From an uncultured Dehalococcoidaceae bacterium (GTDB lineage Bacteria > Chloroflexota > Dehalococcoidia > Dehalococcoidales > RBG-16-60-22): a DNA stretch of 64,000 bases. The translations under genes and the position numbers were made by a program. Positions 10,411-36,324 of the stretch are shown here, piece after piece. The stretch lies in assembly GCA_964422155.1 (NCBI GenBank), contig CAYQZZ010000004.1:1749-65748 (forward strand), read 5' to 3'. Position 1 is the first letter of the stretch, and every line of letters begins with the position of its first letter. The notes under the pieces are model-generated. The model had not been told where the DNA came from. It ran no database searches and saw only the letters and a list, made by a program, of their open reading frames with translations.

Positions 10411-11778
10411 ATGGAATTAACTCGAACGCGGACGCCGCAGGAAATATGGGAAACCGCCCTGGGCGAACTCCAGGTACAGGTCAGTAAGCCGAATTACCGA
10501 ACCTGGTTCAGCAAGACCATCGGGTTGAGCTATCAGGATAATCAGTTCGTCATCGGGGTTCCTAACACGTTCGCGGCTGAATACCTGGAGAAGAACCAGC
10601 GCTCCCTCATCGAAAAGGCCCTCATCGGGCTCACATCACCCGATGTACAGGTGGTTTTTCAGGTTAATGGCAAATCCCATCAACAGCATGCCAGCACAGA
10701 AAGCGGGCCGGCCATGCCCACACCCTCGCCGACCTATATCAGGCTTAATCCGAACTATGTTTTCGACTCGTTCGTCGAAGGCAGCGGTAACCGCCTGGCC
10801 CGTGCCGCAGCTCTATCCGTTGCCCAGAACCCCGGCCAGAGCTACAACCCCCTTTTCATCTACGGTGGAGCCGGCCTCGGTAAGACACACCTGCTTCACG
10901 CTATCGGGCAGGCGGCCTCGGCCAACCATATTAACGTCATCTGTTCCAGCGCCGAGCAGTTCACTAATGAGTTCGTCACCGCCCTGCGCGAGAAAACCTC
11001 CGAGGAGTTCCGTAATAAGTACCGCAGTATCGGTATGCTGCTTATCGACGACATCCATTTTATCAGTGGAAAAGAGCAGACCGAAGAGAGCTTCTTCCAC
11101 ACCTTTAACGAGCTGCACAATACCAACCGGCAGATAGTTATCACCAGCGATTGTCCGCCCAAGTCGATGCCCCTGCTGGAAGAGCGTTTGCGTTCCCGTT
11201 TCGAATGGGGACTTATTGTCGATATACAGCCGCCTGATTATGAAACGCGGCTGGCTATACTGCAATCGAAAGCCCGACTGAAGGGCATCAACATCGCTTC
11301 GGAAATACTCGAGATGATAGCCAGGGACATACAAAGCAATGTCAGAGTACTGGAGGGCTCTCTCAACAGGGTGATTGCCCTCGCCAAGCTGCTGAAGACT
11401 ACCCCTACCCTCGAAATCGCGACCAAGGCTCTGGAGGACGTCGCCAGTAAAGAGTACCTCGCAGACGATATTTCTCCCGACTCGATTATCGAAGCCGTGG
11501 CCGAAAGTTTTCATCTTTCCCGGGAGATATTGATGGGGCGGCAGAGGGATAAGGATACCTCTTTAGCCCGCCGTCTGGCCATGTACCTTATCCGGCAAGA
11601 GACTAATTACTCTCTCGCCCAGATAGGGCAGGAGCTGGGAAACCGCGATGCCGCCTCGGTAACCGCCGCCTGCAAGAAAATTGCCATTGACATCACTGGC
11701 AGCCACTTCCTGAAGCGACGCGTAAGCGATATTAAGAGACATCTCCAACCTAAAGCAGTTTCTAAAAACTCCGTTTAA
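10411..11778 (+). CDS. dnaA: Chromosomal replication initiator DnaA
   Basis: 455 aa. Walker A GGAGLGKTHLL, LLIDDIHF, C-terminal DNA-binding domain. Confidence 0.97.
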   Translation: MELTRTRTPQEIWETALGELQVQVSKPNYRTWFSKTIGLSYQDNQFVIGVPNTFAAEYLEKNQRSLIEKALIGLTSPDVQVVFQVNGKSHQQHASTESGPAMPTPSPTYIRLNPNYVFDSFVEGSGNRLARAAALSVAQNPGQSYNPLFIYGGAGLGKTHLLHAIGQAASANHINVICSSAEQFTNEFVTALREKTSEEFRNKYRSIGMLLIDDIHFISGKEQTEESFFHTFNELHNTNRQIVITSDCPPKSMPLLEERLRSRFEWGLIVDIQPPDYETRLAILQSKARLKGINIASEILEMIARDIQSNVRVLEGSLNRVIALAKLLKTTPTLEIATKALEDVASKEYLADDISPDSIIEAVAESFHLSREILMGRQRDKDTSLARRLAMYLIRQETNYSLAQIGQELGNRDAASVTAACKKIAIDITGSHFLKRRVSDIKRHLQPKAVSKNSV

Positions 11779-13324
<1,546 letters not shown>

Positions 13325-15591: not shown

Positions 15592-17637
15592 CTACTCAGT
15601 CCCGCCCAGTGATTCCGCAAGCAGTTCACTCAGGTCCATGGCTTTTATGGACTCTTCCGCTCCCTTGGCTTTAAGCGCATCATCGAACATGGTCAGGCAG
15701 TAAGGGCAGGCCGTCGCCACGCAGTCCACTCCGGCTTTGATAACCTCCTCAACTCGCCGCATATTGACGCGCTTGTCCGGCTCCTCCTCCATCCACATGT
15801 GGCCGCCGCCGCCGCCGCAGCAAAAGCTATCGGTTTTATGGCGCGGCAGTTCGATATTCGTTCCGTTTAAAGCCCTCAGGATTTCCCTGGGCTCGTCGTA
15901 GATGTCATTGTAGCGTCCCAGGTAGCAAGAATCGTGGTAGGTGGCTTTCTTGACACTATTTCTATTGACTTTCAGCCGACCCTCTTTAATCAGACCGGCG
16001 AAGAACTGTGTATGGTGCACGACCTCGAAATTGCCGCCGAACTGTTTATACTCGTATTTCAGGCTATTGAAGCAGTGGGGGCAGGTGGTCAGTATCTTTT
16101 TGACGTTGTGCCCCTTGAGAATCTCGATATTCTGCTGGCAGATGGTCTGGAAGAGGTACTCATCGCCCATACGGCGGGCGGGGTCGCCGCAGCAGGCTTC
16201 CTCCTCACCCAGAATGCCGAACTTGATGCCGGCCGCCCCCAGGACTTTAGCCGTGGCACGGGATACCTTCATGTTGCGGTCGTCGAGGGCGGCGCTGCAG
16301 CCCACCCAGTAGAGAATCTCAGCATTTTTGACATCGGACATGGTATTGACTTGCAGTCCGTCACACCAGGTGGTCCTCGTGGAAGTAGTCCCCCGGTAAG
16401 GATGTCCGCGGGTGCCGAGACTTTTCAGCGCTTCCTGGGCCGCTTCCGGGAAACGGCTCTTTTCCATCGCTAGATTGCGGCGCATGTCCACTATCTTGTC
16501 GACGTGTTCGATGTAAACCGGGCATGCCTGCTGGCAGGCGCGGCAGGTAGTACAGTCCCAGATAACCTCTTCGGTGATAATGTCGCCGAGCATTTCCTTG
16601 CGGGACTCCGTCGGCTTTATCGAAATCAGGCCGGGATATACATCGTAGAGGTGCTGCTTGAGGTCCTGAATGACCTGCTTGGGATTAAGGGCTTTACCGC
16701 TGAAATGGGCCGGACAGGCGTCCTGGCAGCGGCCGCACCGCGTGCAGGCGTCAAGGTCGAGGAGCTGCTTCCAGGTGAAATGCTCGATTTTGCTGACGCC
16801 GAAAAGCTCGGTTTTCTCGAAATCGAGTTTGGTCAGCGTGCCACGCGGCCCCAGGTTTCTGAAAAATACGTTCACGGGGTCCCAGATGATGTGGAATAAT
16901 TTGGTGTTGTAAAGCGATACATACACTATGGCGCTAAGGCTCAGGAATACATGGAACCACCACGTAAAGATATGCCAGTCCAGCAGGGCATTCTGACTCA
17001 GGCCGGAGAAAGCCCTGGCAAGCACATAACCCCCGGGCGACCATGGAGCCCAGTCCGGGGACGCCTGAAGCTCGGTGGCGGCCATGCGTAACCCTTCGAC
17101 GATAAAGCCGGTGACGATGACTATCAGGATTAACAGCAGAGTCACCAGGTCATCCCACCTGTTATCGAGTCTTTCCGGCCTCCAGATGTACCGTCTGCCG
17201 ATGGCCATGAGCACGCCGATAATAGCAAGTATGCCGAAGCTATCGACCACCACCGAGTAGCCCAGGTAGAAGTTACCGTGCATAAATTCGAAAAAGTAGT
17301 GGCTGATGAAGTCCAGGAAGGCACCGAGGAGGAAGACAATACACCCTGAGAAAATGAGGAAATGCGCCAGTCCCGCATAAAGCTCACGAAAACGCCAGTC
17401 CTTAGCATCCAAGCCGAAGAACTTGCGGTGTAAAAGGCCGTCGATAAATGCTGTCCGGATAAACGCGGGGATACGCTGGCCCGGCTGGTTGAACCTGTTG
17501 GCCGGCTGGCCCACCCGCCACCTCCGGGGGTGCCTGAGGATGGCATAGACCAATATAGCTACAGAAATAGCGGCCAGGGAGTACATTATCCAGGGGTACT
17601 GAATATTCCAGAAAATCTCACGGGTTGGCTGTTCCAT
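15592..17637 (-). CDS. Membrane-anchored Fe-S oxidoreductase, HdrD/DsrK-like, fused to a DsrM/NarI-like multi-helix N-terminus
   Basis: About 250 aa of hydrophobic helices, then CTRCGRCQDACP and CTTCRACQQACP, then two CCG-type cysteine domains (CCGDP..., CPHC, FCCGGGGGH). Confidence 0.75.
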   Translation of the reverse strand: MEQPTREIFWNIQYPWIMYSLAAISVAILVYAILRHPRRWRVGQPANRFNQPGQRIPAFIRTAFIDGLLHRKFFGLDAKDWRFRELYAGLAHFLIFSGCIVFLLGAFLDFISHYFFEFMHGNFYLGYSVVVDSFGILAIIGVLMAIGRRYIWRPERLDNRWDDLVTLLLILIVIVTGFIVEGLRMAATELQASPDWAPWSPGGYVLARAFSGLSQNALLDWHIFTWWFHVFLSLSAIVYVSLYNTKLFHIIWDPVNVFFRNLGPRGTLTKLDFEKTELFGVSKIEHFTWKQLLDLDACTRCGRCQDACPAHFSGKALNPKQVIQDLKQHLYDVYPGLISIKPTESRKEMLGDIITEEVIWDCTTCRACQQACPVYIEHVDKIVDMRRNLAMEKSRFPEAAQEALKSLGTRGHPYRGTTSTRTTWCDGLQVNTMSDVKNAEILYWVGCSAALDDRNMKVSRATAKVLGAAGIKFGILGEEEACCGDPARRMGDEYLFQTICQQNIEILKGHNVKKILTTCPHCFNSLKYEYKQFGGNFEVVHHTQFFAGLIKEGRLKVNRNSVKKATYHDSCYLGRYNDIYDEPREILRALNGTNIELPRHKTDSFCCGGGGGHMWMEEEPDKRVNMRRVEEVIKAGVDCVATACPYCLTMFDDALKAKGAEESIKAMDLSELLAESLGGTE

Positions 17638-25600: not shown

Positions 25601-25693
25601 GTCATTCTGAGTCCCGATGTAATCGGGGCGAAGAATCCGTCTATCCAGTATGGGGGACGGATTCTTCAGTCGCTTCGCTCCTTCAAGAATGAC
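25601..25693 (+). repeat. Family-P nested-palindrome element, copy P1 (gtcattctga...aagaatgac)
   Basis: Outer inverted repeat gtcattct/agaatgac. Inner hairpins cccgat-gta-atcggg and gaagaatccgtc...gacggattcttc. Lies just beyond the paaK stop. Confidence 0.7.
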
Positions 25694-25708
25694 AGTAATA
25701 AAATACTT

Positions 25709-27034
25709 CTAGTGCGGCCTGAGGTCCTGGAACCGCCGGCTCTTGGCCTGGGACCGGGGCAGGCTCTCATACTCGTGAAACTCTATATTATAGCCCAGGT
25801 TGGTCTTTAACCGGAGCTGGTCGGTCAACTTCGCCCTGATGGCGGCCTCGTCCTTCTTATATTCAGGGAGGATTTCTACTTTCAACGTGATATCGTCGAT
25901 ATCGCCCTTCTTGGTAACGACCACCTGGTACTCTTGGCTTAGCTGTGGTATGTCCCGCACCACTTCCTCGATGGCCGCCGGCGAAAGCAGCACGCCCTTG
26001 ACCTTGGTGATATCGTCGGCGCGCCCCTGGATGCCGCCTTCGAGTATACGGTAGGTCCGCCCGCAATCGCATTTCCGGGCATTCCACTGGATTAAGTCCT
26101 TCACATCGAACCTGATGCACGGCTGGGCCATCCGATTAAAGGTGGTTACCACCATCTTTCCCTTCCTGCCAGGCTCGTCAATGGATTCCCCCGTGTTCAC
26201 GTCTTCTATCTCCACCAGGAAGAAGCCTTCGTTGACGTGCAGGCCGGCCTGGTAACGGCACTCCCAGCCCCAGTGGCCGATTTCCGTGCTGCCTACCTGG
26301 TCGAAGACTTTGGCACCCCAGGCTTCCTCCATTCTTTTCCGGGTAGCCGGGATACTGCCCCCGGGCTCGCCGGCGACCGTTATTTTCCTGATAAACAGGT
26401 CTTTGGGCGGGTCTATGCCCATCTTCCTGGCTGTCTCGGCCATGCCCAGGACATAGGTCGGCGTGGCGCCCATGGCCGTGGCTTTAAGCTCCTGCATCTT
26501 CAAGATGCGCGCCTCGGTGTTGAGGACGCCGCCGGGAATCACCTCGCACCCCAGCTTCTCGCCGGCATAATGGTAAGCCCAGAAGGCAATAAAAATGTTA
26601 TAGCCGAAGGGCACAAAAAGCCGGTCTTTAGCCCGGTAACCTTGGGCGTACAGGGCATAGCAATAGGACTCGGTGCTGTATTCCCAGTCCTGCCAGGTAT
26701 CCGCCTGGTAAATCGGCTGTCCCGTCGTACCGCTGGTCTGGCGATAGGCCGTCACCTGTTCCAGGGGCACGGATAGAATATCTCCGTAGGGGAAGGGGTC
26801 CTTCCCCTGGATGCTTCGCATCATGGACTTTTCTATCTTGGGCACTTTTTTAATGTCCTCGAATTTCTTTATATCGCCGGGTGCGATGCCGGCGTCGCTG
26901 TAGAGCTTGTGATAGAACTTGGAATGCTCGTAGGCCCAGGTAAAAATTTCCTTGAATTTCTTAAGTTGCAGCTGCTGTAGTTTTTCCCGGGGCATTGTTT
27001 CCAGAACGGGATTCCAGTATTCGCTGTTATTCAT
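25709..27034 (-). CDS. Phenylacetate-CoA ligase family (PaaK / F390 synthetase-like)
   Basis: 441 aa, TSGTTGQP AMP-binding motif, PaaK-like N- and C-terminal domains. Confidence 0.87.
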   Translation of the reverse strand: MNNSEYWNPVLETMPREKLQQLQLKKFKEIFTWAYEHSKFYHKLYSDAGIAPGDIKKFEDIKKVPKIEKSMMRSIQGKDPFPYGDILSVPLEQVTAYRQTSGTTGQPIYQADTWQDWEYSTESYCYALYAQGYRAKDRLFVPFGYNIFIAFWAYHYAGEKLGCEVIPGGVLNTEARILKMQELKATAMGATPTYVLGMAETARKMGIDPPKDLFIRKITVAGEPGGSIPATRKRMEEAWGAKVFDQVGSTEIGHWGWECRYQAGLHVNEGFFLVEIEDVNTGESIDEPGRKGKMVVTTFNRMAQPCIRFDVKDLIQWNARKCDCGRTYRILEGGIQGRADDITKVKGVLLSPAAIEEVVRDIPQLSQEYQVVVTKKGDIDDITLKVEILPEYKKDEAAIRAKLTDQLRLKTNLGYNIEFHEYESLPRSQAKSRRFQDLRPH

Positions 27035-27155
27035 AATGAACTACCTCTTCTAGCTTTAGGATTTCAGTCGGGGGCTGAAACGACATCGACCACCTATAAA
27101 TATACTCAAAATCAAGCGGTATTAGCAAATAAAGTAACGGAGAGTGTTTATAGAT

Positions 27156-27248
27156 GTCATTCTGAAAGAGTCCCGACTATGTCGGGACGACTGAAGAATC
27201 CGTCTTTAAGGGGAATGGTTACGGATTCTTCGCTTCGCTCAGAATGAC
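27156..27248 (+). repeat. Family-P element, copy P2
   Basis: Same architecture and orientation as P1 (gtcattctgaaagagtcccgac...gaagaatccgtc...acggattcttc...ctcagaatgac). Lies upstream of the paaK start. Confidence 0.7.
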
Positions 27249-27386
27249 AATAATAAACAAAGTAAATATGAGAAGGCAGTTCTCAATTAAATGCGAAAGT
27301 GGCATATTTGTTCTATATGGAACAAAACACGACCGTTATATATGCTCAGTAATAACGTATTGAAGACTGGTCGACTGTAATATTTA

Positions 27387-27415
27387 TTGACAAAGGCAGA
27401 AAGCCGTTATAAAAT
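27387..27415 (+). promoter_or_regulatory. Sigma70-like promoter of marR
   Basis: TTGACA, 17-nt spacer, TAAAAT. The TTG that the ORF track uses as a start codon is the -35 hexamer. Confidence 0.5.
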
Positions 27416-27449
27416 TATTCTAGATGGAACATATTTCATCTTTTTTAAT

Positions 27450-27968
27450 ATGATTACTGAATCGAAAAACCACACGACCACCGGCGAAGTAAGCAAGAGA
27501 ACTGATAAGACCCCTTTAGGCACTTTATTATCCATCCTTACGTCATTCGAGGTGCTGGCGCGATATCTTGAAGTCGAGCTAAAGCGCCACGAAGCCAGCC
27601 TTATCCGCTTCAACATTATGAGTACCCTGTTTAAAAACGGCGGCGAGATGACGCCATCGGAAATTGCGGAGAGCGTCTTTCGGGAGAAGAATTCGATTAC
27701 GGCGGTGATAAATACCCTGGAGAGACAGGGAGTTGTCCGCCGAGAACCGTCTCCCGACGACCGGAGGTCGGTGAAGGTTGTCATCACCGATAAAGGCTGG
27801 AAGGAAGCCAATCGGTTAAGCCCCATTGCCCAGGAGTTAAGCCGCGAGGCGTTGTCCTGCATGGACAAAGAGCAAATTGAGGGTTTAGTCGACAGTATGA
27901 GGACGCTCAGGGAAAGCCTGCTGCCCAGAATCGCTAAATCGTCGGGAAACGGAAAACGTCATTTATAG
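27450..27968 (+). CDS. MarR-family transcriptional regulator
   Basis: Winged-helix pattern MTPSEIAESVFREKNSITAVINTLERQGVVRREPSPDDRRSVKVVITDKG. Start at the first in-frame ATG after the promoter. Confidence 0.8.
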   Translation: MITESKNHTTTGEVSKRTDKTPLGTLLSILTSFEVLARYLEVELKRHEASLIRFNIMSTLFKNGGEMTPSEIAESVFREKNSITAVINTLERQGVVRREPSPDDRRSVKVVITDKGWKEANRLSPIAQELSREALSCMDKEQIEGLVDSMRTLRESLLPRIAKSSGNGKRHL

Positions 27969-28048
27969 TCTTTAACGAGAATCGTGGTTTCACAGCGGAA
28001 CCGGAGTAACATTGCGCTGAATACGAATAAAGAGGGGATTATGCAACT

Positions 28049-28597
28049 GTGAAAGAGATAAGGATTCACGGGCGAGGCGGGCAGGGAGCCGTTCTGGCAG
28101 CTAGGATGCTGGCCAGCGCTTTCGTGACCGAGGGCAAGTACGTGGCCAGCTTTCCCATGTACGGTTTCGAAAGGCGCGGCGCGCCGGTGGTGGCTTTCAC
28201 CCGCATTGATGACAAGCCCATTCGGGAAAAAACACAAATTTACAATCCTGATTGCCTGATAGTCATTGACCCTGGACTGTTAACTCTACCAACGCTTTTC
28301 ACAGGGTTAAGGCCGGAGTCAGCCTTCATTCTCAATAGCCCCAAAAAGCTGCCCAAACAGCCCAACGAAAACCTGAAGATAGGCGGAGTGGTCAATGCTA
28401 CCGGCATCGCTGTGCAGGAAATCGGCCGTGACATTCCCAATACCTGCCTTTTGGGGGCTTTTGCTGCCGCGACCGGCTGGCTGGAACTGAAGTCGATACT
28501 TGCCTGCCTGCCGGACTATCTCAGCGGCGATATCCTTCAGAGAAATCTGAAGAGTGCCGAGAGAGGCTACAAGGAAGTGGAGGTAACCAAATGGTAA
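28049..28597 (+). CDS. 2-oxoacid:ferredoxin oxidoreductase, gamma subunit
   Basis: IRIHGRGGQGAVLAARMLA signature. GTG start with a Shine-Dalgarno sequence. Confidence 0.85.
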   Translation: MKEIRIHGRGGQGAVLAARMLASAFVTEGKYVASFPMYGFERRGAPVVAFTRIDDKPIREKTQIYNPDCLIVIDPGLLTLPTLFTGLRPESAFILNSPKKLPKQPNENLKIGGVVNATGIAVQEIGRDIPNTCLLGAFAAATGWLELKSILACLPDYLSGDILQRNLKSAERGYKEVEVTKW

Positions 28598-28881
28598 TAA
28601 AGCATAAAAATCTTTTTAAGACGGAAAATGCCTGGTCCAATGCAGATGAGTTACTTCTCTGCCTGGATACCGGCAGCTGGCGTACGGAGAGGCCGGTGCT
28701 GGACAAGGAGAAATGTAATTACTGCGGCCTTTGCGCCCTCTACTGTCCCCCGCAGTGCATGACGGATAAAGGCGACCATTTCGAGCCCAACCTGGCTTAT
28801 TGCAAAGGCTGCGGAATCTGCGCTCATGAGTGCCCGCGCGGCTCTCTGACCATGGTTCCGGAAGGAGAGTTCGCAAAATGA
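28591..28881 (+). CDS. 2-oxoacid:ferredoxin oxidoreductase, delta (2x[4Fe-4S]) subunit
   Basis: CNYCGLCALYCP and CKGCGICAHECP. Confidence 0.85.
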   Translation: MVIKHKNLFKTENAWSNADELLLCLDTGSWRTERPVLDKEKCNYCGLCALYCPPQCMTDKGDHFEPNLAYCKGCGICAHECPRGSLTMVPEGEFAK

Positions 28882-30071
28882 AGGCTAAAAAGGGTCAGGT
28901 TAAAGTAATGACGGGCAACGCTGCCGCCGCCTATGCTGCCATGCTGTGCCGGCCGGATGTAGCTACTTCTTATCCCATAACGCCCATGAGCGAGGTGGCG
29001 GAGCAGCTCTCCACCTTCCATGCCGACGGTGTTCTGGATGCGGAGATGGTGGAGGTCGAGGGGGAAAACTCAGCCATGAACGTCGTAGCCGCCGCCAGCA
29101 TTGCCGGAGGCCGGGCTTTTACGGCTACTTCTTCCTGGGGCCTGGTGTTCATGTATGACGCTCTACTTCAAGCCGCCGGCTTCAGAGCACCGGTGGTGAT
29201 GGCTATCGCCAACCGCGAGACACCGGGCATCCTGGCGGTCTCTTCCGGCCAGCAGGACATTATCGCCACCAGGGATTCGGGATGGATACAGATAATAGTT
29301 GAGAACTGCCAGGAAATCCTTGACCAGATTATCATGGCTTTCCGGCTGGCAGAAGACTACGATATTCAGCTGCCGGTAATGGTGAACTACGATGGTTTTT
29401 ACCTTTCCTATCTTTCTGAAGCAGTGGAAATTCCCGCTATTGAAGACGTGGATAAATTCCTGGCCCCCCTGAAACAGCAGCCGCAGCGGATGAAGCTAAG
29501 GCCGGGAGTGCCCCTGGGCGCCGGCACCCACGGCATCGAGATAGGATTCATGGAGCTACGCTATAAGCATTGCCAAGCCCTGCTGCGGGCGCTTAAAAAG
29601 GTAGATGAAATAGATGCGGAGTTCAAGCAGTTTTTCGGGCGCGGTTACGGAGGGCAGATAGATGAATACCGCACCGAGGATGCGGAGATAGTTATACTGA
29701 CCTCGGGGGGCGCTGCCGGGACAGCCAAGGCAGTGGTTGACACCAAGAGGGCGGAAGGGGTGAAGGTGGGCCTGGTTAAACTAAGACTTTTCCGTCCTTT
29801 CCCCCATGAGAGGCTGGTCAAAGCTCTTAAGGGGAAAAAAGCCATCGGGGTCATCGACCGCAGCGTGTCTTTCGGCTGGAACGGCGGCCCCATATTTACG
29901 GAGGTAAAGGTACTTTCCCGGGAAATCGGCTCCATGCCCATACTAAGCTATATCGATGGCCTGGCTAATATGGATATAACCATACCACATATCGAGAGAG
30001 TAGTAGACGAAGTAAGTGCCGCCGCACAGGGCAAACCTTACCAGGAGGTTACCTGGATACCCTTAGAGTAG
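28878..30071 (+). CDS. 2-oxoacid:ferredoxin oxidoreductase, alpha subunit
   Basis: MTGNAAAAYAAMLCRPDVATSYPITP. The start MKAKKGQVKV overlaps the delta stop by 4 nt. Confidence 0.87.
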   Translation: MKAKKGQVKVMTGNAAAAYAAMLCRPDVATSYPITPMSEVAEQLSTFHADGVLDAEMVEVEGENSAMNVVAAASIAGGRAFTATSSWGLVFMYDALLQAAGFRAPVVMAIANRETPGILAVSSGQQDIIATRDSGWIQIIVENCQEILDQIIMAFRLAEDYDIQLPVMVNYDGFYLSYLSEAVEIPAIEDVDKFLAPLKQQPQRMKLRPGVPLGAGTHGIEIGFMELRYKHCQALLRALKKVDEIDAEFKQFFGRGYGGQIDEYRTEDAEIVILTSGGAAGTAKAVVDTKRAEGVKVGLVKLRLFRPFPHERLVKALKGKKAIGVIDRSVSFGWNGGPIFTEVKVLSREIGSMPILSYIDGLANMDITIPHIERVVDEVSAAAQGKPYQEVTWIPLE

Positions 30072-30084
30072 TGAGGAAAGAAAG

Positions 30085-31014
30085 ATGGTAGAAAAAACGA
30101 AGAAAAAATCGAGAGTTTTTGACTATTTTATCGAAAAAGAAGAACAGTACGCCGGTGGTCTGGCCTGGTGCTCCGGCTGCCCTCTGGAACTCACCTTGAG
30201 ATTTGTGCCCAAGGTTCTCGGGAAGGATATAGTCATTGTCGGTTGTCCCTGTTGCTCGGCGCCCATTCTTTACGGTCAGAACGTGGGGACATGGCACAAG
30301 ATGTCTTACTACAGCGCCCTGATGACCGGCGTTGCCTCCAGCGCCACGGGAATTTCAAGGTACTACCAAAAGATAGGCCAGGATGCTACCGTGGTCTGTT
30401 TCACCGGCGATGGCTGCGCTGCCGATGTTGGCTTCCAGCCCCTGAGTGGCGCCGCGGAAAGAAACGAAAAAATCTTATATATCTGCTATGATAACGAAGG
30501 CTACATGAATACCGGTGTTCAAAGAAGCAGCACCACGCCCCTTGGAGCCTCGACGACCACGACCCCCATCGGTAAAATGAGCCGGGGTAAACCGACCGGC
30601 TCCAAGAACCTGCCCATGGTGATGCTGATGCACCAGCCGGTGTACATGGCCACCGCCACACTGAGCCACCTCGAAGACTTTGCCAAGAAGCTCCAGAAGG
30701 CTAAAGAAAAGGCGAAAGAAGGGTTTGTCTATCTCCATATTTTTTGCCCCTGCCCGGTAGGCTGGCGCATTGATTCCAACATGTCCATCGAGGTATGCCG
30801 CACCGCCGTGAGGACCAACTACTTCCCGCTCTGGGAGGCGGAGGACGGTAAACCGAAAATTACAGTCGAGGTAGCCAGCCCGAAACCGGTTACGGAATTT
30901 ACTAAATTGATGCGGAAATTCTCGCATTTGAAAGAGGAAGGCCTGGCGGAACTGCAAAAACAGGTCGATGAGAGGTACGCCCTGCTTAAAAAACTGTGTG
31001 ATGCCAGTACGTAA
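30085..31014 (+). CDS. 2-oxoacid:ferredoxin oxidoreductase, beta (TPP-binding) subunit
   Basis: CSGCP..., GDGCAADVGF...YDNEGYMNTGVQRS TPP motif. Confidence 0.87.
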   Translation: MVEKTKKKSRVFDYFIEKEEQYAGGLAWCSGCPLELTLRFVPKVLGKDIVIVGCPCCSAPILYGQNVGTWHKMSYYSALMTGVASSATGISRYYQKIGQDATVVCFTGDGCAADVGFQPLSGAAERNEKILYICYDNEGYMNTGVQRSSTTPLGASTTTTPIGKMSRGKPTGSKNLPMVMLMHQPVYMATATLSHLEDFAKKLQKAKEKAKEGFVYLHIFCPCPVGWRIDSNMSIEVCRTAVRTNYFPLWEAEDGKPKITVEVASPKPVTEFTKLMRKFSHLKEEGLAELQKQVDERYALLKKLCDAST

Positions 31015-31076
31015 AAAATAAAAAATACCAGAGAATTGACTGTATAAAACATAACTTAGGAGGTGGATTGTAAATA

Positions 31077-33830
31077 ATGGTTACCCAAGCAAAAAGCAAG
31101 CCAGTAAAAGACAAACCGGTAAAAGGTCTATCGGTAAAAGGTAATCCGGAAATCTGGGACGACACCTGGGTGAAATCGACATGCGGAGGGTGCTACGGCC
31201 AGTGTACCATTCGCGCCCACCGGGTAAATGGGGTTATCGTGAAGATTGAGGGGGAGCCGGATAATGACTTCGGCGCCCGAGGCGGTCTCTGCGCCAAGGG
31301 CGAAGCGATGATACAGGCCCTTTACGACCCCAACCGCTTCAACTACCCCATGCGCCGGACTAATCCCAAGAAAGGTCTTTTCGAGGACCCCAAGTGGGAG
31401 AGGATTTCCTGGGATGAAGCCCTCGATGAGATAGCCAAGCGACTCAAGAAAATCCGCGCCGAAAATCCCAATAAACTTCTCCATGGCGGCACGCCGTCGG
31501 CGGGTAGCGGGCCTGATTTACCCCTGGGCTTCGGGGTCTTCGGGGCGGTGTTCGGCACCAAGAACTGGTACGTCGGCGGCGCCGGGCTGCACTGCGGGAG
31601 CGGCTCGCACATGGGCGCCGGACTCTATCATGCCTCATGGTCTATCGTGCCGGACTATAAGTACTGCAATTATGTTATCCAGATGGGCTCCAACAAAGGC
31701 ACCGGCTCCGGGCACTCCATGGGCTTCAACATGAGACTCTCGGCGGATGCCCGGGCGAGGGGTATGAAGAATGTGGTTTTCGACCCCATCTGCAACTTCG
31801 GCGGCGGAAAGGCAACCGAATGGGTACCCATCCTGCCTGGTACGGATGGTATCGTCGCCCTGACGATGGTCAATATCATTCTCAATGAACTGAATGTCTA
31901 TGACGCCGAATTTCTCAAGAAGAAGACCAACGGACCTTACCTCATCGGGCCGGACGAGCTCTATGTCCGTGATAAAGGGACTAATAAGCCTCTAATCTGG
32001 GATTCCGTGGATAAAAAAGCCAAGGTCTTTAACGACCCCACCATCAAGGACTATGCCCTGCTGGGGGAGTACACGGTCAACGGCGTCAAGTGCCACCCTT
32101 CCTTCCAGCTCGTGAAAGACAACGTGAAAAAATATACGCCGGAGGCGGCGGAGAAAGAGAGCACCGTGCCGGCGGCGACAGTGCGGCGTATCGCCAAGGA
32201 GTGGACTGACGCGGCGATGGTCGGCGCCACCATTGAAATCGAGGGAGAAAAGCTCCCCCTGCGGCCGGTAGCGGCCATCATGTTCCGCGGCGGCCAGGGC
32301 CATACCAACTCGGCGCAGAGCTACTGCGCCATGTGCCTGCTCAACGCCATCGTGGGCGCCATGGATGTCCCCGGTGGCACTCTCGGCTGGCCGGCCTACG
32401 TCGGCGGCTACCCGGAGACGGGTAGATTCAAGGTCATACCTTACCCCTGCAAGGACGGCATGCTGACGGCCGGGACCTTCATGGAGCATAAACCCTGGCC
32501 GGTAGAGGAATCCCAGGTACCCAATACTTTTCTCATGAAGGAGCTGGTGCCGACGGCATCGTTCTCTCCCCAGCCGGTAACATCGGACTTCGATAAATAC
32601 TGGGATAAGCTGGGGCGGCCTTACGAGATAGAAATGGCGATAATTTTCGGCGCCAACATGGTGCGCAGCACCCAGAACCGCGAAATAGCCGAAAATTTCT
32701 TTAAGAAGATACCGTTCATCGTATCCATTAATATACTACCCAACGAGTTCTGCGAGGGCTTTGCCGACATCGTCCTGCCCGACTGCCATCCGCTGGAGAC
32801 ATACTGCATCTTTGGGGCGCATGGTCCCTTCTTTAACCACCCCATCGGCATGGAAGGCTGGAGCTTCCCTATCAGGCAGCCGGTGGTCAAGCCTGCCTAC
32901 GAGCGGCGGAACAAGGTCGAAGCTCTCTGGGACCTTGCCGATAGAATCGGCATGAGAGAAGAGATGAATCAATACTACAATGTCTATTTCTCCAGCTTCG
33001 GCGGCGAAGCGCTGATAAGCGGCGATATAGCCAGTGTCAGGGACGTGAAACAAATAGACCCGAAAAAGGTAACCGTACTCATCAAGCCCGAGGAGAAGAT
33101 TTCATACCATGAGATGATGGACCGCGCCTTCAAGTTCTACTTCGGCGAAAAACACGGCCTGGAATATATCTCCGAGCACGGCAGCATCGATTGGCCCAAG
33201 AAAGTCAAAGAGGCGTACTGGAGATGGTACGTGGATGTCAGAGTACCAATCTACATGGAGCATATCGCCGAGCTCAGGCCGGAGATAATGGAAAATGCAA
33301 AGAAGGCGGGTGTGGAGCTTGAGTGGGAGCAGTTTACGCCGCTTATCAGCTACTTCACTCCCCAGGTATCCAAGGAGGAAACCAGCGAGTTCGACCTGTA
33401 CAGCTTCTCCTACCGTGATATCCTCCACAACGGCACCTATACCATGGAAATGCCCTGGCTGGACGAGGTCTCCAAGCTTAACCCGTACACTTATAACATC
33501 ACCATGAATGCGGACACCGCTAAAAAGAAGGGCTTAAAAGACGGCGACCTCATCTGCCTGGAGTCATCGTACGGACGCAAGGCAACGGGCACGCTGAAGA
33601 CGATGCAGGGGCAACATCCCAAGACGATAGCAATATCCGCGTGTTCCGGCGCCTGGGCGAAGGGAGCGCCTGTTGCCTACGGCAAGGGCACCAACTTTAA
33701 TATCCTGCTGGAATCGGACTTCAAGCACGCCTGCCCGGTGTGCTGGAGCCAGGAAACGGCGACCATGGTTAAGGTCTATAAAATCGACCATCGCATAGAG
33801 TACGATGGAGTAGGAGGCAAACCGCTATGA
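31077..33830 (+). CDS. Molybdopterin oxidoreductase catalytic subunit (DMSO reductase superfamily), no Tat signal
   Basis: 917 aa. N-terminal CGGCYGQCTIRAH...27 aa...CAKG FS0 cluster motif. The N-terminus MVTQAKSKPVKDKPVKG has no RR motif or hydrophobic core. Confidence 0.85.
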   Translation: MVTQAKSKPVKDKPVKGLSVKGNPEIWDDTWVKSTCGGCYGQCTIRAHRVNGVIVKIEGEPDNDFGARGGLCAKGEAMIQALYDPNRFNYPMRRTNPKKGLFEDPKWERISWDEALDEIAKRLKKIRAENPNKLLHGGTPSAGSGPDLPLGFGVFGAVFGTKNWYVGGAGLHCGSGSHMGAGLYHASWSIVPDYKYCNYVIQMGSNKGTGSGHSMGFNMRLSADARARGMKNVVFDPICNFGGGKATEWVPILPGTDGIVALTMVNIILNELNVYDAEFLKKKTNGPYLIGPDELYVRDKGTNKPLIWDSVDKKAKVFNDPTIKDYALLGEYTVNGVKCHPSFQLVKDNVKKYTPEAAEKESTVPAATVRRIAKEWTDAAMVGATIEIEGEKLPLRPVAAIMFRGGQGHTNSAQSYCAMCLLNAIVGAMDVPGGTLGWPAYVGGYPETGRFKVIPYPCKDGMLTAGTFMEHKPWPVEESQVPNTFLMKELVPTASFSPQPVTSDFDKYWDKLGRPYEIEMAIIFGANMVRSTQNREIAENFFKKIPFIVSINILPNEFCEGFADIVLPDCHPLETYCIFGAHGPFFNHPIGMEGWSFPIRQPVVKPAYERRNKVEALWDLADRIGMREEMNQYYNVYFSSFGGEALISGDIASVRDVKQIDPKKVTVLIKPEEKISYHEMMDRAFKFYFGEKHGLEYISEHGSIDWPKKVKEAYWRWYVDVRVPIYMEHIAELRPEIMENAKKAGVELEWEQFTPLISYFTPQVSKEETSEFDLYSFSYRDILHNGTYTMEMPWLDEVSKLNPYTYNITMNADTAKKKGLKDGDLICLESSYGRKATGTLKTMQGQHPKTIAISACSGAWAKGAPVAYGKGTNFNILLESDFKHACPVCWSQETATMVKVYKIDHRIEYDGVGGKPL

Positions 33831-34474
33831 GATGGGGAATGGCTATCGAACTGAAGAGATGCATCGGCTGTTATGCCTGCGTGCTGGCCTGTAAGGCCGA
33901 GCACTTCCTCCCGCCCCAGATTTTCTGGAACAGGGTGCTGATAGGCGAGAAGGGAAAATATCCCTCGGTAAGTAAGCTCATATATTCGGTACGCTGCAAT
34001 CATTGCGCCGAACCGAAGTGTGTGAAAGTCTGTCCTACCGGGGCTACGGAGCAGCGGGAAGACGGCATTGTCTGGGTCGATGAAACAAAGTGCGTGGGCT
34101 GCCGGTACTGCATGGTCGCCTGTCCTTATCAGATGCGCTCAATGTATGAAGACGGAGATACGCAATACTTCCCCGGACAGGAATTGACCGAGCATGAAAA
34201 GATAGGGAAGACGCTCTATCCGCATCAGCCGGGCGTGGTTCAGAAGTGTGTCTTCTGCAAGGAGAGGATAGATTCCGGCATATCGCTGGGGTTAAAACCG
34301 GGCGTCGACCGCGATGCAACCCCGGCCTGTGTTATCATCTGCCCGACGAAAGCTATACACTTCGGCGACCTGGATGACCCGAATAGCGAGATTAACCGGA
34401 TAATCAAAGAAAAGCACGGCCATGCGTTCCATCCCGAGTTTGACACGGAGCCGTCAATCTCTTACATTGACTGA
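33827..34474 (+). CDS. Four-cluster [4Fe-4S] electron-transfer subunit (DmsB/PsrB/NrfC-like)
   Basis: Four Cys groups (CIGCYACVLAC, CNHCAEPKCVKVCP, CVGCRYCMVACP, CVFC...CVIICP). ATGA overlap with the upstream gene. Confidence 0.87.
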   Translation: MRWGMAIELKRCIGCYACVLACKAEHFLPPQIFWNRVLIGEKGKYPSVSKLIYSVRCNHCAEPKCVKVCPTGATEQREDGIVWVDETKCVGCRYCMVACPYQMRSMYEDGDTQYFPGQELTEHEKIGKTLYPHQPGVVQKCVFCKERIDSGISLGLKPGVDRDATPACVIICPTKAIHFGDLDDPNSEINRIIKEKHGHAFHPEFDTEPSISYID

Positions 34475-34500
34475 AAAAGAAGAAGGGGAGGCATAACAAA

Positions 34501-35382
34501 ATGAGTAATATAAAACCATATGATTTTATGGTAAAAGCCCAGCAACAGAAAGACTGGATAGATGGAAGGGGCAACTTTATCGCCTTCGCCTTTTTCCTGG
34601 GAGGTATCAGCGGCGGTCTGTATCTGGCCTCCGCTTACTTCGATAACCTGACGGGCATGTTCGTGGCCTGGCTGCTCTCCCTGCTCATGGGTATATCCTA
34701 CATGATACACCTGAGCCATCCATTCCGGTTCTGGCGTATGTTCATGAAGCCGAAGACATCTTGGATAGCGCGGGGCTTCATCTTCATCATGCTGTTCATC
34801 GGTTTTACCTTTATACAGCTTATCCTGTCTCAATGGTTCGCGGAACAAACGGCATTGGTAACTACTTTCAAAGTGTTGGCCGGCATATTCGCCTTTGCCC
34901 AGTCAATCTATACCGGCTTCGCCGTCAGCTATGTCAGCGCTATCAAAGTGTGGAATTCGGCGATTGTGCCGGTCCTTTTCGTCACCTGCGGTCTCACCGG
35001 CGGCCTGGCCATCCTCCTGGCTATCTTTATAGCTGGCGACAGTACACAAATCGCAGCGCTGGAGAATATCATCCGTGTCGTACTGATAGCTCTGGCTATT
35101 ATCATCGGAGTTTATCTGTGGAACACCACCTACAGCAGCGCTGCAGCCAGAGATGCCGTCAAGAGGCTCATCGGGGGCAGTCTGGCACCGCTCTTCTGGG
35201 TAGGGGTTTTTCTGTTCGGCATAGTCATACCGATAGCTATATCTATTACCACCTATTATGCCGAGGAGGCTTCCTCCGGAGTACTGATTACAGCCGTGGT
35301 AAGCGAAATAATTGGCGGTCTGGCATTGAGATTCGCCATACTGAAAGCGGGCGTTTATACACCTCTTTTACCCGCTGATTAG
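34501..35382 (+). CDS. NrfD/PsrC/DmsC-like integral membrane anchor
   Basis: 293 aa, about 8 hydrophobic helices, GGAGG upstream. Confidence 0.8.
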   Translation: MSNIKPYDFMVKAQQQKDWIDGRGNFIAFAFFLGGISGGLYLASAYFDNLTGMFVAWLLSLLMGISYMIHLSHPFRFWRMFMKPKTSWIARGFIFIMLFIGFTFIQLILSQWFAEQTALVTTFKVLAGIFAFAQSIYTGFAVSYVSAIKVWNSAIVPVLFVTCGLTGGLAILLAIFIAGDSTQIAALENIIRVVLIALAIIIGVYLWNTTYSSAAARDAVKRLIGGSLAPLFWVGVFLFGIVIPIAISITTYYAEEASSGVLITAVVSEIIGGLALRFAILKAGVYTPLLPAD

Positions 35383-35469
35383 CCAGTTAAAACCTGACGA
35401 TAAGGTACCGAAAAATTGGGGACCATCGTGGCGGAAATCTACCGCCCGGTGGTCTCCTTGTTTTTTTCT

Positions 35470-35569
35470 GTCATTCCAGCGAAGGCTGGAATCCAGGGGA
35501 GAAGGGGTGGTCTGGATTCTCTGGTCAAGCCTTCAGGCTGAAGCGTTCAGGCTGAAGCCAGAGAATGAC
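35470..35569 (+). repeat. Family-P element, copy P3 (gtcattccagcgaaggctggaatcc...ggtcaagccttcaggctgaag...gagaatgac)
   Basis: Shares head, tail and the gccttcaggctgaa duplication with 41785..41915. Confidence 0.7.
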
Positions 35570-35716
35570 ACTATAAAATATTCTCTTTGTTTTGGAATTC
35601 GCTTTGCTTGTTGGGGTATAATTGTTTCAAAGCCTGTCAGGGGGGTGGATATGCCGCACTAGACTGAAGAACTGTTTGAGGAACATCCAGATTTATTTCA
35701 AGGTTTATTCGAGGCT

Positions 35717-35859: not shown

Positions 35860-36324
35860 ATGGCAGACATTAAGACAGAATTCTTATTTGACCTTAAAGC
35901 TGATCTGGATATGCCCGGAGCAATCAGAATGGGGACAACACCGCATGGCACGAGGACAATTGTTTACGTTACCGGTGGGACCATCGAAGGGCCGAAGATT
36001 AAGGCTACTGTGCTTCCGGGAGGCGGCGATTGGTTGCTGGGTCGGCCAGATGGAACGAATGTGATGGACGTGAGGGCGGTGGCTCGTACAGACGATGGCC
36101 AGATTATCTACACTTATTATCGCGGCTATCTTAATATTCGACCGGAGGTTCTACAGCGGATATACAAAGGTGAGAAAGTCGACCCATCGGAGTATTACTT
36201 CCGCACTACTCCTGTATTTGAGACCGCCTCCGATAAATACGCCTGGTTAAACAAGGTCGTTATGGTAGGTATCGGCACGCTGTCGGCAACAGGGGTCGCC
36301 TATCGAGTCTACTCCATCCTGTAA
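35860..36324 (+). CDS. DUF3237 (UPF0311) family protein
   Basis: GTTPHGTRTIVYVTGGTIEGPKIKATVLPGGGDWLL...DVRAVARTDDG pattern. Confidence 0.72.
   Translation: MADIKTEFLFDLKADLDMPGAIRMGTTPHGTRTIVYVTGGTIEGPKIKATVLPGGGDWLLGRPDGTNVMDVRAVARTDDGQIIYTYYRGYLNIRPEVLQRIYKGEKVDPSEYYFRTTPVFETASDKYAWLNKVVMVGIGTLSATGVAYRVYSIL

Follow-up and report, generated by a model that had tools for sequence, protein, structure and literature searches.

Anaerobic phenylacetate oxidation of the Pad type, described from Thauera aromatica and Aromatoleum, relies on a membrane-bound molybdenum complex (PadBCD) and on a phenylglyoxylate oxidoreductase (PadEFGHI) which reduces NAD+ at the decarboxylation step. We examined a locus of closely similar composition in a stretch of 64,000 nucleotides (hereafter the window) from contig CAYQZZ010000004.1 (contig C4) of an uncultured Dehalococcoidaceae bacterium, GCA_964422155.1. 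This metagenome-assembled genome (MAG) has a size of 2.44 Mb and a completeness of 87%, and its closest public relatives are Dehalococcoidales MAGs out of peat, soil, aquifer and sediment. Nine genes at 25709–35382 comprise a minus-strand CoA ligase gene and, diverging from it, eight plus-strand genes for a MarR regulator, a four-subunit 2-oxoacid:ferredoxin oxidoreductase (OFOR) and a three-subunit molybdenum complex. The initial annotation had described this set as paaK-marR-porGDAB-Mo/FeS/NrfD, and a listing of open reading frames together with Pfam and NCBIfam profile scans of the window recovered every gene where it had been placed (Table 1). We consider it reasonably probable, on comparative sequence evidence, that the operon is a Pad-like, ferredoxin-coupled module which under anaerobic conditions would convert arylacetate via arylacetyl-CoA and arylglyoxylate to aroyl-CoA, and which would stop there.

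The operon shares several features with PadBCD: a catalytic subunit of ~860–920 aa carrying molybdenum bis(pyranopterin guanine dinucleotide) (Mo-bisPGD), a four-cluster iron–sulfur (FeS) subunit, an NrfD-type anchor, the lack of a twin-arginine translocation (Tat) signal, a Cys and a His at window residues 173 and 178, and an adjoining Pad-type OFOR. The linkage to a 2-oxoacid oxidoreductase and an arylacetate-CoA-type ligase is present in one operon and divergon and is kept in relatives. The window enzyme differs from PadBCD in belonging to a separate, well-supported clade (clade W), in a gene order with the OFOR first and the molybdenum genes after it, and in its host, which belongs to a strictly anaerobic lineage. 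PadEFGHI (NF045762–NF045766) and the window OFOR have the gamma-delta-alpha-beta core in common, but the latter scores far below the Pad cut-offs. Pyruvate:ferredoxin oxidoreductase (POR or PFOR) of the PorABCD type (PDB 9bt4; a copy in the same genome) resembles the window OFOR in subunit composition and size, but the window proteins miss the PorA and PorB cut-offs and the alpha subunit falls in a different clade. PsrABC, PhsABC and ArrAB share with the window enzyme the broad DMSO-reductase branch, a cysteine molybdenum ligand and the types of FeS and NrfD partners, whereas they are Tat-exported, face the periplasm and have catalytic subunits of ~760–850 aa.

A Pad-like route in Dehalococcoidia, which had been thought unusual when the locus was first annotated, is not a new proposal. 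It was inferred from genome annotation for the marine Dehalococcoidia DEH-C11 (PMC4959651), and a Pad-like gene set was inferred in the same way for Desulfotomaculum gibsoniae (PMC4148979). Both papers drew the same inference as we do from a ligase, a molybdenum oxidoreductase and a phenylglyoxylate OFOR in non-denitrifiers, the likeness being one of annotation, but both also infer onward degradation of benzoyl-CoA, whereas we found no BamA/Oah in this genome or in five relatives. It should also be noted that D. multivorans needs no PadB to degrade phenylacetate (PMC5109826), which cautions that annotation is not equal to function. What appears to be new here is a sister lineage of the molybdenum enzyme, a simpler OFOR of ferredoxin type and the apparent lack of a ring pathway to follow.

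The molybdenum subunit and its closest relatives

To identify a PadB reference, we searched the PadI profile NF045766 against 401 Burkholderiales genomes, two of which gave matches above the cut-off. In the pad cluster of G196 (locus L093) the PadE, F, G, H and I proteins all exceed their cut-offs, and 1.5 kb downstream of them lie genes for an 867-aa Tat-less molybdenum subunit, an FeS subunit and an NrfD-like anchor; a metagenome contig (L114) has the same layout. The G196 molybdenum subunit, identified as PadB by this synteny, is 33–35% identical to the window protein over its full length (448 bits), and the next match in that genome reaches 176 bits. The FeS subunit and the anchor of the window are 44% and 27% identical to their counterparts in this cluster. 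By these comparisons PadB is the closest identifiable relative of known function. The genome G148 was rejected as a second reference: beside Oah and BcrC it has a true PadEFGHI, but the window molybdenum subunit finds no match there above 249 bits. A tblastn search of plasmids with the molybdenum subunit returned only matches of ≤ 30% identity and no named PadB. One submitter to NCBI had given the name padB2 to an 82%-identical homologue.

The similarity to respiratory reductases is more limited. Solved structures of ArrA and PsrA match the N-terminal third of the window subunit only, with 119 and 113 bits. Its top NCBIfam match is PhsA (190 bits against a cut-off of 694), TtrA reaches 73 bits against 1750, and no named-reductase model among PhsA, TtrA, ArrA and DmsA passes its cut-off, with wide margins. 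A plasmid match from Phaeobacter (H15), tried as a candidate SoeA, is an unrelated enzyme of 1142 aa which lacks FeS and NrfD partners. A sulfite (SoeABC) role for the window enzyme seems less likely in view of its conserved OFOR and ligase partners.

Within the molybdenum subunit, the cysteines of the FS0 cluster are C36, C39, C43 and C72. The likely molybdenum ligand is C173, which aligns with the cysteine that we regard as the ligand in ArrA. Since the whole superfamily has Cys173 and His178 without exception, function cannot be told from the active-site motif. No twin-arginine (RR) motif was found in the N-termini of the molybdenum or FeS subunits, and no signal peptide on the FeS subunit. 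The enzyme is thus predicted to face the cytoplasm, as expected for an enzyme oxidising a CoA ester. Four Cys motifs were seen in the sequence of the FeS subunit and ~8 hydrophobic helices in a hydropathy scan of the anchor.

We placed the subunit in trees built from 149 representatives of an exhaustive HMMER search (506 clusters at E ≤ 1e−30), together with the locus proteins, PadB and other molybdenum enzymes of three genomes. In the FastTree phylogeny the window protein falls in clade W, with relatives of ≥ 45% identity, at a support of 100. Clade W and the clade containing PadB form a Tat-less group (support 88) which lies next to a Tat-bearing clade; no member of clade W has a Tat motif, as opposed to 36 of 43 members of the neighbouring clade. 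An NCBIfam scan of representatives from the neighbouring Tat-bearing clades gave them no name. In IQ-TREE, run with 81 sequences, clade W again had a support of 100, and monophyly of the Tat-less group was not rejected by the approximately unbiased (AU) test (p = 0.44).

The genome also encodes a second membrane molybdoenzyme (C71:7899–10035 and C38:20503–20994), with a 712-aa catalytic subunit and with FeS and NrfD partners which share 59% and 45% identity with their operon counterparts. This could be a terminal reductase built on a common electron-transfer scaffold.

The oxidoreductase and its linkage to the molybdenum enzyme

The window OFOR is not assigned to a named type by profile scores. 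Its alpha subunit scores highest with PorA, followed by PadG, and its beta subunit with PadI, followed by VOR-beta and PorB, with none above its cut-off (Table 1). The PadI match of the beta subunit is restricted to profile positions 136–439 and so leaves out the N-terminal ferredoxin domain. The best solved structure for the alpha subunit is a four-subunit PFOR (PDB 9bt4, 291 bits). A second four-subunit OFOR in the genome, on contig C33, has a beta subunit which passes the PorB cut-off (426 against 405 bits) and which scores much lower on the Pad models; on these scores it is an ordinary POR. The window OFOR is 36–42% identical to it. As the genome also encodes a 1116-aa PFOR and an indolepyruvate:ferredoxin oxidoreductase (IOR), the operon OFOR would not be needed for pyruvate. 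In a bootstrapped tree of alpha subunits, the window protein groups with other alpha subunits linked to molybdenum enzymes (100/99), and these are together sister to the PadG clade (100/98), with the PorA of contig C33 outside.

The entire block of ligase, MarR, OFOR and Mo/FeS/NrfD genes was found in ~35 Dehalococcoidales MAG loci, in which the molybdenum subunits are 79–92% identical to that of the window. Homologues at E ≤ 1e−150 occurred in 20 of the 201 sampled genomes of the order, and 6 of the 12 further genomes from the family of the window carry one. The OFOR genes lie upstream of the molybdenum genes in the window clade and downstream of them in a clade of 69–72% identity (L037, L039 and L046). 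At 45–52% identity, an OFOR still adjoins the molybdenum enzyme in 11 loci, which belong to Desulfobacterota, Clostridia and further Dehalococcoidia. Since the adjacency is kept through rearrangements and across phyla, we consider it meaningful and not due to chance; the contiguity of the three functional classes, on which the first description of the locus was built, is thus a property of a conserved unit.

Judging from their gene content, several of these neighbouring OFORs are plainly of Pad type. PadH-like genes are present in L053 and L077, and the beta subunit in L048 is PadI-like with an N-terminal ferredoxin domain. In L081, a Desulfobacteraceae MAG locus, a clade-W enzyme stands beside a PadI above the NCBIfam equivalog cut-off (756 against 700 bits) and a PadH-like gene. 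In L069 the module is flanked by UbiD with a family-III CoA-transferase and by a TRAP transporter, and its OFOR has a gamma subunit which forms a fusion with an NAD(P)H-flavin reductase. PaaK-like ligases again stand beside related molybdenum enzymes in L067 and L116. Three loci of beta- or other proteobacterial MAGs with 45–46% homologues (L078, L079 and L082) have no PadI of cut-off grade and no OFOR in their flanks. Many genomes carry 2–4 paralogues of the molybdenum subunit, some of them in tandem (L049, L050, L065 and L071; G455 and G510).

Two of the loci have unusual contents of their own. The 31-kb contig JASFIT010000004.1 of the Desulfobacteraceae MAG, which holds L049 and L081, carries three clade-W molybdenum genes, two FeS/NrfD sets, an OFOR of the four-subunit type and a PadI of cut-off grade with PadH, and is thus a dense island of Pad-like paralogues. 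In L116 (GCA_016190625.1, JACPQF010000118.1) the PaaK-like ligase is directly followed by a member of the wider PadB clade and then by CoA-transferases, an aldehyde:ferredoxin oxidoreductase (AOR), FeS/NrfD genes and a MaoC dehydratase, without an OFOR, so that the same type of enzyme stands here in another pathway context.

These results bear on the possibility that the neighbouring genes have no common pathway, the OFOR being an ordinary pyruvate or branched-chain enzyme and the molybdenum complex an unrelated respiratory one of the Psr, Phs, Ttr or Soe type. PorA_Arch is nominally the top model of the alpha subunit (404 bits against 381 for PadG), its best structural match is a four-subunit PFOR, PhsA heads the NCBIfam matches of the molybdenum subunit and the flanks of the block are housekeeping genes. 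However, such a chance arrangement would not account for a linkage which survives rearrangement and extends across phyla, the Tat signal is lacking from both the molybdenum and FeS subunits, the reductase cut-offs are widely missed, and the genome has a POR of cut-off grade and a PFOR of its own. As the alpha subunit clusters with PadG and not with this POR, and the molybdenum subunit lies outside the Psr, Phs, Ttr and Arr enzymes, we regard this explanation as very improbable.

Proposed reaction, substrate and fate of the product

In the Pad-like reading, the PaaK-family ligase would form the CoA thioester of an arylacetate; arylacetyl-CoA might also be supplied directly from aromatic amino acids by the IOR. 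The cytoplasm-facing Mo/FeS/NrfD complex would then oxidise the alpha-methylene group with water to arylglyoxylate, a four-electron oxidation in which electrons would pass from the molybdenum subunit through the FeS subunit to the membrane anchor. The four-subunit OFOR would finally decarboxylate the 2-oxoacid oxidatively to aroyl-CoA and reduce ferredoxin. PadEFGHI depends on NAD+ for this last step, but for the window OFOR ferredoxin, by way of the delta subunit, is the likely acceptor, because there is no PadH flavoprotein (FAD/NAD), no PadI ferredoxin domain and only Pad scores below cut-off.

A number of observations weigh against this assignment. The window OFOR fails all four Pad equivalog cut-offs tried (PadE, F, G and I), and neither PadH nor a PadI ferredoxin domain was found among the genes at 27387–35382 by the listing of open reading frames and Pfam; the alpha tree was built without named POR or VOR references. 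The ligase scores 243 bits against the PaaK cut-off of 646 (TIGR02155), so that it fails at the equivalog level, although membership in the PaaK family holds. The deep nodes of the molybdenum-subunit phylogenies are weak (52–63; 60–63 in IQ-TREE). The AU test rejects an exclusive group of clade W and strict PadB (delta lnL 198, p-AU = 1.2e−5), a test weakened by the fact that the group was named after the tree had been seen. Only 7 of 102 conserved columns are common to clade W and PadB but not to the Tat-bearing relatives, and none of these lies near the molybdenum ligand, so that the active-site columns do not set the two apart from those relatives. Deeper relatives (P0129, P0156 and P0177) have quite different neighbourhoods, and the superfamily is therefore multifunctional as judged by gene context. 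On the side of the product and the electron acceptor, the highest score of Oah/BamA (TIGR03200) in this genome was 74 bits, with a cut-off of 464 and 642 bits for the positive control G148, BcrC was not found in this genome by profile search, and no known use for benzoyl-CoA is apparent from its genes. The futalosine-pathway proteins MqnA/D, the only quinone-pathway family searched, had no match in the genome, which holds three UbiA-family genes.

We therefore retain only part of the two comparisons in the initial annotation. The molybdenum enzyme, likened there to that of PadBCD, has PadB as its nearest relative of known function and does not group with Psr, Phs, Ttr or Arr, but its strict orthology is rejected; on the phylogeny it is PadB-like and not a strict PadB orthologue. 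Likewise, the OFOR, likened there to PadEFGHI, has an alpha subunit sister to PadG and apart from the genome's own POR, but it is a four-subunit enzyme which lacks the additional Pad components.

These discrepancies leave room for the same chemistry on another substrate, that is, alpha-oxidation of an acyl-CoA followed by decarboxylation of the 2-oxoacid to a product one carbon shorter, with a heteroaryl, an alicyclic or a branched aliphatic acid with blocked beta-oxidation in place of an arylacetate. The separation of clade W from strict PadB agrees with this, and the 2–4 paralogues per genome, sometimes in tandem, suggest diversified substrates. The ligase has the Bacteroides phenylacetate-CoA ligase 4r1l as its best structural match (214 bits), and 2-hydroxyisobutyryl-CoA synthetase, also of the PaaK family, follows with a nearly equal score (194 bits); no aromatic ring pathway (Oah/BamA, BcrC) was found in the genome. 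Set against these points are the Pad-grade PadI and PadH which adjoin a clade-W enzyme in L081, the aromatic-type context with UbiD in L069, and the sister position of the alpha subunit to PadG. A benzylic alpha-CH2 group is, moreover, the easiest target for water-dependent hydroxylation by a molybdenum enzyme. On balance another substrate seems rather unlikely, though it deserves to be kept in mind, and we continue with an arylacetate as the favoured substrate.

The initial annotation had also drawn from the locus a conversion of arylacetate into benzoyl-CoA chemistry, and for this funnelling into a ring pathway we found no support. In addition to the results for this genome, Oah/BamA was found at E ≤ 1e−30 in none of five same-family genomes (92–96% complete and with an orthologous molybdenum subunit), and BcrC was represented in these five only by distant family members (114–151 bits; cut-off, 421). 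As the lineage yielded neither ring-reducing nor ring-opening enzymes, aroyl-CoA or the free aromatic acid is probably the end point of the route, which would thus be an incomplete oxidation. One ADP-forming acyl-CoA synthetase-type ATP-grasp gene is present on contig C86. The AOR proposed as a phenylacetaldehyde partner, a fragment at 3–500 of the window, is unlinked to the operon: 25 kb with gyrA, aspartate kinase, dnaA, obg and other housekeeping genes lie between the two. It is one of ~20 AOR-family paralogues in this 2.4-Mb genome (others are at C12:34451, C24:22360 and C25:24518), which is an expansion of unusual size.

The direction of the reactions has also to be considered. OFORs can work in both directions, and in some anaerobes arylacetate is assimilated by way of PaaK-like ligases. 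In a biosynthetic or reductive role the OFOR would act as a synthase carboxylating an acyl- or aroyl-CoA to the 2-oxoacid, the ligase would activate an acid obtained by scavenging, and the molybdenum complex would feed or remove electrons; coupling to ferredoxin through the delta subunit without PadH would suit such low-potential chemistry. However, the genome already has an IOR, which is the usual arylpyruvate synthase, and a quinone-type membrane anchor would be superfluous. The PadBCD reaction includes hydrolysis of the thioester and is regarded as irreversible, and the organisation under MarR is of a catabolic style. A reductive role is for these reasons highly improbable, and oxidation of arylacetate to aroyl-CoA is the direction we favour.

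Layout of the locus and its possible role in Dehalococcoidales

The coordinates of the locus are given in Table 1. The plus-strand genes overlap at gamma/delta (7 nt), delta/alpha and Mo/FeS (4 nt), and the remaining gaps are 13–80 nt; these overlaps and the tight packing fit a single operon of eight genes. The ligase gene stands at the same place in relatives with 80–95% identity of its product, and the marR product is 70–98% identical. A promoter-like site (TTGACA-17-TAAAAT) at 27387–27415 falls within the listed start region of marR, so that the true start is probably downstream and the listed TTG too far upstream. The ligase gene and the operon would be expressed from divergent promoters under MarR control.

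Table 1 Features of the Pad-like locus in the window (scores in bits; a second value is the model cut-off)
Feature	Position	Strand	Evidence
PaaK-family acyl/aryl-CoA ligase, 441 aa	25709–27034	−	PF14535 (AMP-binding_C_2) 65; TIGR02155 243/646
Divergent control region, ligase/marR	27035–27386		one palindromic-repeat copy at ~27145–27259
MarR-family regulator, first operon gene	27387–27968	+	Pfam MarR 47, residues 74–129
OFOR gamma	28049–28597	+	PF01558 127; TIGR02175 201; PadE 186/300
OFOR delta, two [4Fe-4S] clusters	28591–28881	+	TIGR02179 83.5; PadF 82/150
OFOR alpha	28830–30071	+	PorA_Arch 404/550; PadG 381/700
OFOR beta, thiamine diphosphate-binding, 309 aa	30085–31014	+	PadI 321/700; VOR-beta 299/405; PorB 287/405
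Catalytic Mo/W-bisPGD subunit, 917 aa	31077–33830	+	Pfam Molybdop_Fe4S4, Molybdopterin, Molydop_binding
Four-cluster FeS subunit (PsrB/DmsB/PadC type), 215 aa	33827–34474	+	Fer4_11 and related Pfam families; DsrO 168/200
NrfD/PsrC-type membrane anchor, 293 aa	34501–35382	+	PF03916 86
Terminator-like hairpin after the last operon gene	35439–35452	+	palindromic-repeat copy follows it

A palindromic intergenic repeat of ~90 nt, ending in AGAATGAC, occurs in copies at 25601–25702, 27145–27259 and 35446–35585, so that it flanks the ligase gene on both sides and stands after the last operon gene. The repeats D1, D7, I3 and I5 connect 25609–25702 to 27145–27259, and the inverted repeats I4 and I9 extend to 35446–35585. 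By its form the element resembles a repetitive extragenic palindromic (REP) sequence or a miniature inverted-repeat transposable element (MITE).

In the window and in the related loci alike, the block is flanked by housekeeping genes, with TatD and MatE on one side and DUF72, RecN-like and RNase J genes on the other. A DUF3237 gene at 35860–36324 lies between the operon and the DUF72 gene; no syntenic relative examined has a DUF3237 gene there, and for this reason it looks like a recent insertion. Elsewhere in the window, dnaA is at 10411–11778 and the cumulative GC skew has its minimum near 10–12 kb (~11000–12500), and the chromosomal replication origin is probably located in the window. The minus-strand gene at 15592–17637 encodes a 681-aa HdrD/GlpC-like protein with two CCG domains and a 4Fe-4S dicluster, and its neighbours are MaoC and FAS1 hot-dog dehydratase genes and an FMN reductase gene.

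Sediments, peat and aquifers hold abundant non-dehalogenating Dehalococcoidia, of whose substrates little is known. A further suggestion, which we put forward tentatively and consider possible though doubtful, is that clade W is a distinct and widespread family of cytoplasm-facing membrane molybdoenzymes with which, together with a ferredoxin-type OFOR, strictly anaerobic wetland and sediment Dehalococcoidales would gain energy from the side chain of arylacetates only and would excrete benzoate-type acids. If true, these bacteria would occupy the niche of incomplete oxidisers, with ferredoxin and the membrane receiving six electrons from each molecule and syntrophic partners taking over the ring, and the arylacetates would have their source in lignin, humic matter or the aromatic amino acids. 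Where no ring pathway follows, benzoate-type acids are predicted as end products, together with cross-feeding. The common label "PadBCD" moreover covers at least two separate enzyme lineages, each partnered with Pad-type OFORs, and should the substrate prove to be something else, clade W would represent a new activity in the DMSO-reductase family. The operon is thus a conserved and testable candidate for anaerobic arylacetate turnover in non-dehalogenating Dehalococcoidia.

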